In this document: one piece after another, positions 14,521 through 16,499 of the stretch
How positions within the stretch are numbered: position 1 is the stretch's first letter
Layout of the letters: each line of letters begins with the position of its first letter
Source: a virus
DNA: 64,000 nt
IMG/VR virus record: IMGVR_UViG_3300023179_000073
Location: 1 to 64,000 of that record
Direction: 5' to 3' (one strand)
Program-made: the position numbers and the translations under genes
The notes under the pieces: generated by a model
What the model saw: the letters and a program-made list of their open reading frames with translations, nothing else
Databases searched by the model: none
Told to the model about the DNA's origin: nothing

Positions 14521-14747
14521 TTAATTGCCTCCCTAGTTACTAAGACTATAGCCCCGCAGTTTTCTAATGCCTTTTTTAATTTTACAACATACTGCAATGC
14601 TAATATTTTTTCATCATGCACCATGTGCAAAAATTTCTTTTCATCTAATTTTATCGTAAGAAAATGATCATTGTCAATAATCTGTACTCCAAAGTTTTTA
14701 GGAGCAGGAATAGAATGAACTGCATGTTTCATTAAATCTGTATACAT
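14517..14747 (-). CDS. Hypothetical protein
   Basis: Coupled ORF within the operon. Confidence 0.6.
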   Translation of the reverse strand: MYTDLMKHAVHSIPAPKNFGVQIIDNDHFLTIKLDEKKFLHMVHDEKILALQYVVKLKKALENCGAIVLVTREAIK

Positions 14748-14959
14748 TATTTTCTACCCCATTGAATCATATTCCATCCACGCTCATGGACATAATATAT
14801 GAATATTTTTACAACTGTTTCCCAAAATGCAATTGCTCCTGATAATGTGGCATTTTTAGTTATTACATATGCAACTGCAAAAGAAGATAGAGTGCCCCAA
14901 ATACGATAACTTAATGCCTTTACAAAGGATCTAGACCTAGTTACTTTCACGAAGGCCAC
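14747..14959 (-). CDS. DUF2061 small membrane protein
   Basis: RSFVKALSYRIWGT...KIFIYYVHERGWNMIQWG. Confidence 0.85.
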   Translation of the reverse strand: MAFVKVTRSRSFVKALSYRIWGTLSSFAVAYVITKNATLSGAIAFWETVVKIFIYYVHERGWNMIQWGRK

Positions 14960-14992
14960 TCCATATTTTTAACACTAAGTTTGTCTATTATT

Positions 14993-15754
14993 TTACAAAC
15001 CAAGTTCTTTGCGCTTTTCAGTAGCCGAAATAGCATGAATATCTGCCCCCAAATCTACTTGTTCAATTTTATACCCTACATCACGACCATATACAATATT
15101 GGTAATATTAGGTAAGCGAAGTACCATTGATCCATTCATGAATTCATCCTTGGCAATATATTCTTTTACCTGATCAAAAGTAAGTGGATCTTTTTCACTT
15201 GTATTATATGTATTACGTACTCCCAATAATACTTGATCTGTTCGTTTACCCGCCTCTATATATAATGCATGATGCCCTTCATGCCATGGCTGATAGCGAC
15301 CAAGCATAAGCGTAGTTGGTGCAGACCAATCATGTAATTCAAATAAAGAAATAATCAAACTTGCTTTTTCATATGGATTTTTTTCATGATCAGAAAACAT
15401 AAAGTCAAACTCTTTTGGTGCTATAAACATTTTATTTGTATCTTCAAATCTACCCTCTGTTATGGTATCCATAAAAATTAAAATATCTGGCTTACCAAAT
15501 GCCTCTCTTGTAGCATCTGTTGGACAAACAAAATCTACAACTACTGGAGCAATTCCTTGCTTAGAAATAAGTCTTGCCATTGCACCCATACGTCTTGCTT
15601 GCTCTATGCGATCTTCTGGAGTAAATCCAAGATCAGAATTTACTGTAGATCTTACTTCATCCGCATTAAGATGAATAGCATTAATACGTTCCTTAAGGGC
15701 TTTTGACAGTTCTGTTTTACCAGAACCAGGTAGTCCAATTACTTGTATAATCAT
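14993..15754 (-). CDS. cysC: Adenylylsulfate (APS) kinase fused to a C-terminal HxGH nucleotidyltransferase domain
   Basis: GLPGSGKT, LNADEVR, DLGFTPEDRIEQARR, VDFVCP; then GRYQPWHEGH, IVYGRDVGY, ISATEKR. Confidence 0.85.
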   Translation of the reverse strand: MIIQVIGLPGSGKTELSKALKERINAIHLNADEVRSTVNSDLGFTPEDRIEQARRMGAMARLISKQGIAPVVVDFVCPTDATREAFGKPDILIFMDTITEGRFEDTNKMFIAPKEFDFMFSDHEKNPYEKASLIISLFELHDWSAPTTLMLGRYQPWHEGHHALYIEAGKRTDQVLLGVRNTYNTSEKDPLTFDQVKEYIAKDEFMNGSMVLRLPNITNIVYGRDVGYKIEQVDLGADIHAISATEKRKELGL

Positions 15755-15770
15755 TTTTTTCCCATAACCA

Positions 15771-16499
15771 TTATATAGTATATCCAAAAAAGTCGGCTAT
15801 TTCTCCAACACTTCTTACTACATCGTCTATCTGACTACTATTTAGTTCTTTTTTCCACCTACCAGTACCGTCAAAAAGTGGTTGTTTTACTTGCCAAGAT
15901 CTTCTTATTTCGTGATTACTAATACCATTTTTATAAACTTTGTCTTTTCCATCACTATCTTTTGGATTTTGTACTCCGTACCAGTTTGGAGCATATTTAT
16001 GATACTCTAACATATTTTTATCAAAATCTATGTTTATATATTTACAAATATCAATAAAAGTATCTTCAAAGTCATTAACAATATTTTCATATTTAACTAA
16101 ATGACCAAATGAATAAAACTTTTTTATATATTCAAAGTCTTTTTTAAGCCTATCAATTGACTTATTCCAATTTTCAAACCTGCTATAAAGTGATGAGACT
16201 ATATCTCTTGGGTCTCTTATATTTAATATAAACTTTGCATTTGGATATTCTTTTTTTATTTTATCTAAAACATATATATGATTTGGAGTTTTTTCTATGA
16301 TCATGGTTTGTTTGTCTGAATAGTTATTAAAAATAAAATTATTAATATCATATGACTCATCAATAAACATTCTTGTTTCAGTTGGAATTAATAATAAATT
16401 TTTATGTGTACCTAAAACTGTTGCTGTAAGTGTAGTTCCAGAATGTCCACAGCCAGAAATAGAAATTAAATTTAAATTATTTAATAGTTTATTTTCCAT
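15771..16499 (-). CDS. PAPS-dependent sulfotransferase
   Basis: 5'-PSB loop GCGHSGTT, EKTP, 3'-PB RDPRDIVSS, VKYENIV, GRWK. Confidence 0.88.
   Translation of the reverse strand: MENKLLNNLNLISISGCGHSGTTLTATVLGTHKNLLLIPTETRMFIDESYDINNFIFNNYSDKQTMIIEKTPNHIYVLDKIKKEYPNAKFILNIRDPRDIVSSLYSRFENWNKSIDRLKKDFEYIKKFYSFGHLVKYENIVNDFEDTFIDICKYINIDFDKNMLEYHKYAPNWYGVQNPKDSDGKDKVYKNGISNHEIRRSWQVKQPLFDGTGRWKKELNSSQIDDVVRSVGEIADFFGYTI

Follow-up and report, generated by a model that had tools for sequence, protein, structure and literature searches.

A 253-amino-acid phage protein as a candidate one-chain PAPS synthase with a putative new kind of ATP sulfurylase domain

The window analyzed here is a stretch of 64,000 nucleotides from a lake phage (positions 1 to 64,000 of IMG/VR record IMGVR_UViG_3300023179_000073). 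Its minus strand carries a gene for a 253-amino-acid fusion of a kinase and a nucleotidyltransferase (NT) that is probably a one-chain synthase of 3'-phosphoadenosine 5'-phosphosulfate (PAPS), the transferase half being a new kind of ATP sulfurylase; judging mainly from gene context in phages, SAR11 and SAR86, we give this reading a probability of roughly 0.65. A wider proposition, held a little less firmly and just on the favorable side of even odds, is that the C-domain of about 110 amino acids represents a third class of ATP sulfurylase, derived from NMNAT (nicotinamide mononucleotide adenylyltransferase), that it is the missing enzyme of SAR11 and SAR86 for activating sulfate or converting adenosine 5'-phosphosulfate (APS), that it occurs fused in abundant aquatic phages, and that the small DUF2061 protein is its dedicated accessory. 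Folds, motifs, fusion patterns, gene neighborhoods, and gene absences were observed; from these we infer both activities, the substrate, and the part played by DUF2061. New here would be the enzyme family for the first step, the chemistry and the logic of the fusion being already known.

In the proposed scheme, the NT half (residues ~145-253) would bind ATP through its HxGH and ISxT..R motifs and transfer AMP to sulfate, giving APS and pyrophosphate (PPi), with Arg224 (in YGRDVGY) and Arg180 (in a VR pair) as putative anion binders. The trimmed APS kinase (residues 1-140) would then spend a second ATP on phosphorylating the 3'-OH of APS, yielding PAPS and drawing the unfavorable sulfurylase step forward. 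The PAPS would be supplied to the sulfotransferase encoded 16 nt upstream, and DUF2061 would be a conserved accessory, possibly for sulfate entry or as a tether. The features concerned are as follows:

14993..15754 (stop codon included), minus strand: kinase/NT fusion, 253 amino acids (open reading frame (ORF) call, model and homologues)
15335..15754, minus strand: N-domain, residues 1-140, trimmed APS-kinase-like P-loop kinase (Pfam APS_kinase and structural matches)
15713-15736, minus strand: P-loop GLPGSGKT, residues 7-14 (translation)
15590-15634, minus strand: kinase stretch DLGFTPEDRIEQARR (PAPSS1 alignment)
14996..15334, minus strand: C-domain, residues 141-253, minimal HxGH nucleotidyltransferase, candidate ATP sulfurylase (model and profile)
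15272-15283, minus strand: HEGH of GRYQPWHEGH (translation)
15071-15103, minus strand: TNIVYGRDVGY, with GRD at 15080-15088 (translation)
15011-15031, minus strand: ISATEKR (translation)
15771..16499, minus strand: sulfotransferase gene, 242 amino acids (Pfam Sulfotransfer_3, 4.1e-17)
14747..14959, minus strand: DUF2061, small hydrophobic protein, 67-70 amino acids (Pfam DUF2061, 3.5e-17)

A preliminary description of this DNA had reported the gene trio together with the motifs GRYQPWHEGH, TNIVYGRDVGY and ISATEKR, all of which we found in place in the ORFs and their translations, and the PAPS-dependent sulfotransferase upstream and DUF2061 downstream were likewise borne out by the two Pfam matches listed. 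The fusion gene is not a chance ORF, since its family counts 5952 relatives in 90% clusters and 3651 cluster representatives at 50% identity. The protein begins with MIIQVIGLPGSGKT; an alternative start at TTG 15787 was ruled out, as the homologues are 253 amino acids long. Two-domain homologues with 35-49% identity occur in phages and bacteria, and PHROG 10255, labeled in PHROGs only as 'kinase', matches the protein over its full length (1.8e-60). The AlphaFold2 model of the whole fusion reaches a predicted local distance difference test (pLDDT) of 95 and a predicted template-modeling score (pTM) of 0.86.

The N-domain has, in this model, the fold of an APS kinase, as the preliminary description had proposed. 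Pfam APS_kinase matches residues 2-85 (4.5e-14; 53.2 bits, cut-off 21.1) and only positions 4-91 of the 152 in the profile, and the fold itself extends past residue 85 to span residues 1-140. The best structural match is CysC of M. tuberculosis (4rfv; Z 18.0, 127 aligned residues, root-mean-square deviation (rmsd) 1.7), followed by APE1195 (2yvu) and the Aquifex Sat/APS kinase protein (2gks), both at Z 17.0. APS kinases altogether range from Z 16.3 to 18.0 and are the top matches, with gluconate kinase (Z 14.6) and the shikimate kinases (12-13) scoring lower. Aligned with human PAPSS1, LNADEVR corresponds to LDGDNIR, DLGFTPEDRIEQARR to NLGFSPEDREENVRR, and DFVCP to SFISP, so that the kinase keeps the second Asp of LDGD, both Arg, and the Phe: D32, R35, F44 and R49 align with LDGDNIR, LGF and DR of the human enzyme. 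Across 49 homologues (33-49% identity) R35 is invariant, and D32, F44, R49 and Q52 are near-invariant. The domain measures 140 amino acids, against about 175-200 for APS kinases.

The C-domain, modeled alone (pLDDT 91), is an HxGH nucleotidyltransferase, which Pfam registers only by a sub-threshold match to CTP_transf_like (residues 150-188, E 0.007). Conservation was read in a mixed alignment (A2) and in family alignments. In the mixed alignment four domain residues are invariant, G86, R87, G90 and R111, equivalent to G223, R224, G227 and R248 of the protein; among homologues of 35-49% identity, G152, R153, Q155, P156, H158, G160, H161 and S243 are near-invariant, as are R180 (of VR) and P215 (of a PN motif) in the NT family, R224 lying in YGRDVGY. 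The three signatures HEGH, YGRDVGY and ISATEKR are invariant or near-invariant, and of these only HxGH was aligned with the HxxH of the ATP sulfurylase Sat.

Mini-domains of this type always travel with an APS kinase, either fused to it (in either order, or to a canonical CysC) or encoded next to it. Among 163 viral anchor ORFs, kinase-NT fusions account for 150 and NT-only genes for 13, the NT-only phage genes adjoining a small kinase gene. One homologue (P0158) has the swapped order NT-kinase; another (P0159, 311 amino acids) joins the mini-domain to a canonical CysC with LDGDNLR, NLGFSPEDRTENIRR, FISP and KGLYKKAR...FTGI, and two further loci (L170 and L174) encode the same kind of protein, NT plus a canonical full-length CysC. 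Our survey of 80 cellular loci, gathered with an NT-only alignment (A3), gave 34 fused kinase-NT genes, 2 NT-kinase genes, and 44 NT-only genes; at 34 of these last 44, an APS_kinase-like gene of 135-168 amino acids (Pfam 4.6e-11) lies immediately upstream on the same strand. A metagenomic homologue of 395 amino acids (P0131) has a hydrophobic N-terminal extension of 138 amino acids, which suggests a form that may be anchored in the membrane.

The cellular genomes sampled were 151 of the SAR86 order and 151 Pelagibacterales, most of them incomplete metagenome-assembled genomes (MAGs) or single-amplified genomes (SAGs). In the SAR86 set the NT was found in 70 genomes, Sat in 1, a strong PAPS_reduct-type match in 6, and Sulfotransfer_3 in 81; 67 of the 70 NT-positive genomes carry Sulfotransfer_3 versus 14 of the 81 NT-negative ones (odds ratio 107, Fisher p 8e-25, uncorrected for phylogeny). 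In at least 20 SAR86 genomes a sulfotransferase of 363-399 amino acids is encoded within 2 kb of the NT, with space for the kinase gene between them (as in the gene map of locus L220), and in genomes with such sulfotransferase-kinase-NT clusters Sat and CysD were mostly not found. Neither Sat nor a convincing CysD was found in five pair-carrying genomes that are complete or nearly so. One SAR86 chromosome, G009, which is complete, encodes the kinase/NT pair along with two strong sulfotransferases and lacks Sat, CysD, AprB, and any PAPS_reduct-family gene; no other candidate for APS synthesis was found in it. In a complete SAR86 genome (L198:6655-7554), a membrane protein of PF03601 (Cons_hypoth698, YeiH-like), which we take to be a family of putative sulfate exporters, is encoded just upstream of the kinase/NT pair. 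Outside these two orders, Bradyrhizobium macuxiense (L206) has a cluster in which an ABC exporter and HlyD are followed by two TPR-sulfotransferase genes and, as its last member, a fused kinase/NT gene.

In the Pelagibacterales (n=151) the NT was found in 117 genomes and Sat in 5; one of the 117, G272, is an unpublished genome and supports that tally only. Three loci (L175, at 4015-8348, L177 and L179) from Pelagibacteraceae or alphaproteobacterial MAGs and a SAG carry an operon of a siroheme-type TP_methylase, a sulfite reductase (NIR_SIR), a CysH-type reductase with CC...CxxC cysteines, DUF2061, the kinase, and the NT. This is an assimilatory sulfate-reduction set short only of a sulfurylase. 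Neither Sat nor a second PAPS_reduct gene shows up in two of the source genomes; in the third, Sat is on another contig. SAR11 is usually said to lack assimilatory sulfate reduction.

At two other Pelagibacteraceae loci (L202 and L246) the NT is encoded immediately upstream of an AprM-like protein, AprB, and AprA, with no kinase gene between; the AprM-like protein is a five-helix membrane protein that belongs to no Pfam family. Allochromatium vinosum has the order sat-aprM-aprB-aprA, and for its AprM, too, five helices are predicted and no domain is known (PMC3779200). By this analogy the NT takes the position of the A. vinosum sat. Canonical Sat, rare in these lineages, was seen in two unusual settings: in a SAR86-order genome (G011; L262:2-2104) it is fused to a pyruvate-kinase-like domain in a 700-amino-acid open frame, followed by a weak sulfotransferase-like gene, and in a SAG (G162; L263:1-1858) it directly adjoins a pyruvate-kinase-like gene.

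In the window, the gene at 15771-16499 is the only sulfotransferase found in the whole 79.6-kb record. Its translation contains HSGTT and RDPRDIVSS, which we take to be the 5'-phosphosulfate-binding (5'-PSB) and 3'-phosphate-binding (3'-PB) motifs for PAPS, and a tblastn search with it against deposited phages gave no match. A survey of phage neighborhoods (four genes to either side of the anchor, in 20 groups whose anchors are less than 80% identical) returned Sulfotransfer_3/_1 in 6 groups and Sulfotransfer_2 in 5 as the two most widespread neighbor families, and sulfotransferase neighbors, including the window's type, in 9 of the 20. The co-occurrence with sulfotransferases that the preliminary description had proposed to survey thus holds across phages, and sulfotransferases are also neighbors in SAR86 and Bradyrhizobium. 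Within the window's own lineage, where counts rest on 80 related viral loci, the picture is another one: DUF2061 follows the fusion gene in 75 of the 80, only 2 have a sulfotransferase of the window's type, and sulfotransferase genes of any type lie within four genes of the fusion only 10 times in all. The conserved core is therefore kinase/NT plus DUF2061, and the sulfotransferase is exchangeable cargo. Two of five phage relatives that are 97-100% complete carry several sulfotransferase-like genes elsewhere in their genomes. In Xylella phage Sano, a 195-amino-acid protein encoded upstream of the kinase/NT gene (gp33-gp34, L001:4957-5996) gives a weak match to Sulfotransfer_4 (4e-4), and its PRSRS and HRPAREVAHS stretches resemble PAPS-binding motifs.

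DUF2061 more likely starts at GTG 14950 than at 14959, with GGAG 8 nt upstream of the former, and its relatives begin with MKVT. R10, S11, K14 and R19 (RSxxK...R) and a YYxHERxW motif are invariant, and a simple hydropathy scan shows one clear hydrophobic segment. The family is linked to kinase/NT in 4 groups of phages and 4 of cellular genomes, one case being the cysI-cysH-DUF2061-kinase-NT operon; in Pelagibacter genome G006 (L264, ~433 kb), where it is far away from kinase/NT, it has a HIT-family gene on one side and a SulP sulfate permease on the other. No longer, fused forms of DUF2061 were found in our search, which is weak evidence. Linkage alone, to sulfur genes, supports a sulfate- or APS-related role; to that extent the sulfate-related role first suggested for it stands.

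A number of results weigh against the PAPS synthase reading. In sequence, the closest relatives of the transferase half are NMNATs: a profile built from 18 mini-domains, stand-alone or excised, and searched against the PDB matched 1f9a (3.1e-10) and the Francisella NadM 2qjt (5.3e-10) and no Sat chain at E<=10. An hhalign comparison with a Sat profile of 25 sequences gave a probability of 40.5% over 45 columns around HxGH only and left the GRD motifs of the two families unaligned; with only the HxGH half aligned, motif-by-motif homology with Sat could not be demonstrated. In structure, the top matches of the C-domain (VIA-align) tie among the NMNAT 1f9a (Z 8.6), PPAT (8.5), NadM 2qjt (8.4) and the Thermus ATP sulfurylase 1v47 (8.1), so that the fold allows a sulfurylase without singling one out. 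The kinase has Asn at the first Asp of LDGD, Gln at the Asn of the EN motif, and a lid shortened to ITEGRFEDTNKMF compared with the canonical KGLYKKAR...FTGI, and it stays far under the NCBIfam cut-off for CysC (TIGR00455; 54.8 vs 138.7). In phage Sano, the gene nearest upstream of the kinase/NT homologue encodes a NADAR protein (6e-26), which hints at metabolism of nicotinamide adenine dinucleotide (NAD) or ADP-ribose. Three of the five phage relatives that are 97-100% complete have the fusion and DUF2061 and no detectable sulfotransferase. Sat and NT occur together in 4 of the 5 Pelagibacterales genomes that have Sat, and also in one SAG, so replacement of Sat by NT is not strict. The incompleteness of most sampled genomes counts here as well, as does the fact that the co-occurrence counts are raw with respect to phylogeny and clearly clade-structured in SAR86. 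Finally, our literature searches returned no paper on a phage or minimal PAPS synthase, on SAR86 sulfotransferases, or on a cytidylyltransferase-like sulfurylase.

Taken on their own terms, the comparisons of the C-domain indicate that the mini-domain descends from archaeal/NadM NMNAT-like proteins and not from Sat, which makes its GRD and ISxT..R likeness to Sat a superfamily-level or convergent trait. The Thermus ATP sulfurylase (1v47_B) ties with the top structural matches and aligns over more residues than any other of them (Z 8.1, rmsd 3.6, 112 of 116 residues), and the other Sat structures reach only Z 5.1-5.9; the 1v47 match is best taken as one at superfamily level. A Foldseek search with the isolated C-domain returned nothing at E<=0.001, and the Pfam scan gave no PF01747 (Sat) match in the fusion protein. 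The N-terminal PUA-like domain of Sat (PF14306) is also absent from it, the kinase preceding the NT instead, and the Sat homologues compared carry both PF14306 and PF01747. The C-domain also stays far under the NCBIfam cut-offs for NMNAT (24.5 vs 127). The NMNAT alignments cover only positions 14-76 and 94-119 of the NT profile, equivalent to the first 60-70 and last ~26 residues; at 116 amino acids against chains of 164-181, the mini-domain is missing the middle of NMNAT, presumably the NMN-binding helices and nicotinamide nucleotide site. These comparisons suggest an NMNAT-derived scaffold stripped of a large second-substrate pocket, its conserved arginines suited to a small anion. Of the earlier proposal that the C-domain is a stripped-down ATP sulfurylase, the activity is supported by context (genomes with no detectable Sat or CysD, and operons with the NT in a sulfurylase slot) and by a compatible fold, 1v47 included, even with the tie to NMNAT and PPAT; Sat-type descent and any specific kinship with Sat, in contrast, find no backing in the profile searches. 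A sulfation module in the sense of an obligatory sulfotransferase/PAPS unit was rejected for this phage lineage, given the window's sulfotransferase type at 2 of 80 loci and the three relatives (97-100% complete) with no detectable sulfotransferase.

If the fusion were an APS kinase only, fed with APS from the host's own synthesis, the C-domain would serve in regulation, nucleotide sensing or oligomerization and have no sulfurylase activity; fungal ATP sulfurylase, with its inactive APS-kinase-like domain, offers a comparison. An APS kinase alone would account for the association with sulfotransferases, the C-domain does not match Sat in sequence, and in Pelagibacter AprBA could yield APS from sulfite. 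We nevertheless regard this as unlikely, for the invariant and near-invariant residues of the C-domain form an active-site pattern, the complete SAR86 chromosome has sulfotransferases and neither Sat, CysD nor AprB as a source of APS, and at the two apr loci the NT stands directly before the aprM-like, aprB and aprA genes with no kinase gene between. A shade less plausible still is that the pair makes another 3'-phosphorylated adenylyl compound, the NT adenylylating NMN, a phosphonate, a sugar phosphate, or some other anion and the kinase phosphorylating the 3'-OH, much as PPAT and dephospho-CoA kinase act in sequence for coenzyme A. The NMNAT kinship, the NADAR gene of phage Sano, and the departures of the kinase from CysC (N-A-D for D-G-D, Gln for Asn, the short lid) fit such a scheme, as does the second, ordinary cytidylyltransferase-like gene (132 amino acids, PF01467, 1.4e-18) that directly follows the fusion in some phages (L167:5582-5980 and relatives). 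Against it stand the lost NMNAT middle, the fusion to a fully canonical CysC in P0159, which points to APS, and the neighborhoods, where sulfotransferases, CysH, CysI, AprBA and a SulP permease recur and no NAD-salvage gene does. For this last reason NadR-like NAD salvage, to which the NMNAT relation and the Sano NADAR gene had been leads, was downgraded.

It is very improbable, in our view, that the NT is a true sulfate adenylyltransferase working mainly in reverse (APS + PPi to ATP + sulfate), with AprBA in sulfite oxidation, and that the phage copy drains or rebalances APS and PAPS in the host. This would suit the NT upstream of the aprM-like/aprB/aprA genes in Pelagibacteraceae, where sulfur oxidizers have sat, and the complete phage relatives in which no sulfotransferase was detected. 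The forward direction is needed, however, for the arrangement seen in the window, in SAR86 and in most phages, where the NT and an APS kinase form one protein or are neighboring genes near sulfotransferases, and SAR86 has no AprB; the proposal moreover concerns direction only and shares its chemistry with the PAPS synthase reading, which we prefer.

The trio belongs to a longer run of minus-strand genes, of which the remaining members are:

16503-16784, minus strand: WhiB, upstream of the sulfotransferase in the gene run
14517..14747, minus strand: ORF of 76 amino acids without a Pfam match, its start overlapping the DUF2061 stop
12827-14422, minus strand: tryptophan-halogenase-like (flavin-dependent halogenase) gene of the same run

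From WhiB onward the genes are spaced by gaps of 3, 16 and 33 nt and then a 1-base overlap, the 16 nt separating the sulfotransferase gene from the fusion gene. The source record is estimated to be 73% complete, and the nearest relatives of the virus are viral genomes of about 115 kb. The 76-amino-acid ORF is present at 50 of the 80 related loci, often directly after DUF2061. The halogenase occurs at only 15 of them, and 2OG-Fe(II) oxygenases are common neighbors there. The region from WhiB to the halogenase acts as a variable cargo island.

To our knowledge, ATP sulfurylases come in two kinds, Sat and CysDN, and the mini-domain, if the proposal is right, would be the third. At 253 amino acids the fusion would be the smallest known PAPS synthase, less than half of known sizes, and useful for enzymatic PAPS regeneration, and phages of bacteria in lakes and oceans would supply their own sulfate-activation step rather than a kinase alone. 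SAR11 and SAR86, which are among the very abundant bacteria of the sea and are usually described as being without sulfate activation, would then have an overlooked route to or from APS, and their sulfotransferases, their sulfite oxidation by AprBA, and the cysI-cysH operon of some lineages would need to be reread. DUF2061 would gain its first functional context.

Among known systems, the PAPS synthases and Sat-CysC fusions (PAPSS1, 1x6v, 586-630 amino acids; Aquifex, 2gks) likewise combine on one chain both activities proposed here, and the metazoan enzymes have the same kinase-then-adenylyltransferase order as the phage fusion. Both halves of the phage model align domain by domain with 1x6v (244 residues), with a different domain orientation (rmsd 16 Å over both domains), and the kinase part of 2gks has the same fold as the phage kinase half (Z 17). 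PAPS synthases, however, measure about 550-630 amino acids and contain a PUA-like domain, which the 253-amino-acid phage protein does not, and the phage NT, whose activity is a candidate one, falls outside PF01747 and is about half as large as Sat's catalytic domain. With Sat (1v47, yeast 1j70/1r6x, A. vinosum 4dnx) the phage NT has in common the HxGH/HxxH superfamily, a Gly-Arg-Asp loop after a beta-strand, and ISxT..R near the C-terminus, and mini-NTs are found at the genomic positions of sat, before aprM-like/aprB/aprA and within a cys operon; the QTRNP of Sat is replaced by GR(F/Y/W)QP, and the Sat-specific inserts are absent. NMNATs (M. jannaschii 1f9a, NadM 2qjt) have GRFQPFHxGH, the NP(F/L) loop and S(G/A)TxIR in common with the mini-NT. 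They differ in that GS after strand 2 becomes VR and, reading by eye rather than from a tool alignment, YSGN becomes YGRDVGY, and the genomic context of the mini-NT is sulfur metabolism rather than NAD. Dedicated sulfate-activation genes beside a sulfotransferase are also known from rhizobia (NodPQ, with NodH) and Xanthomonas (RaxPQ, with RaxST). The same logic of a private PAPS supply beside a sulfotransferase is seen here, at the Bradyrhizobium locus also beside an ABC/HlyD exporter. NodPQ and RaxPQ are homologues of CysD and CysN-CysC and form a GTP-coupled heterodimeric sulfurylase with a fold unrelated to that of the mini-domain.

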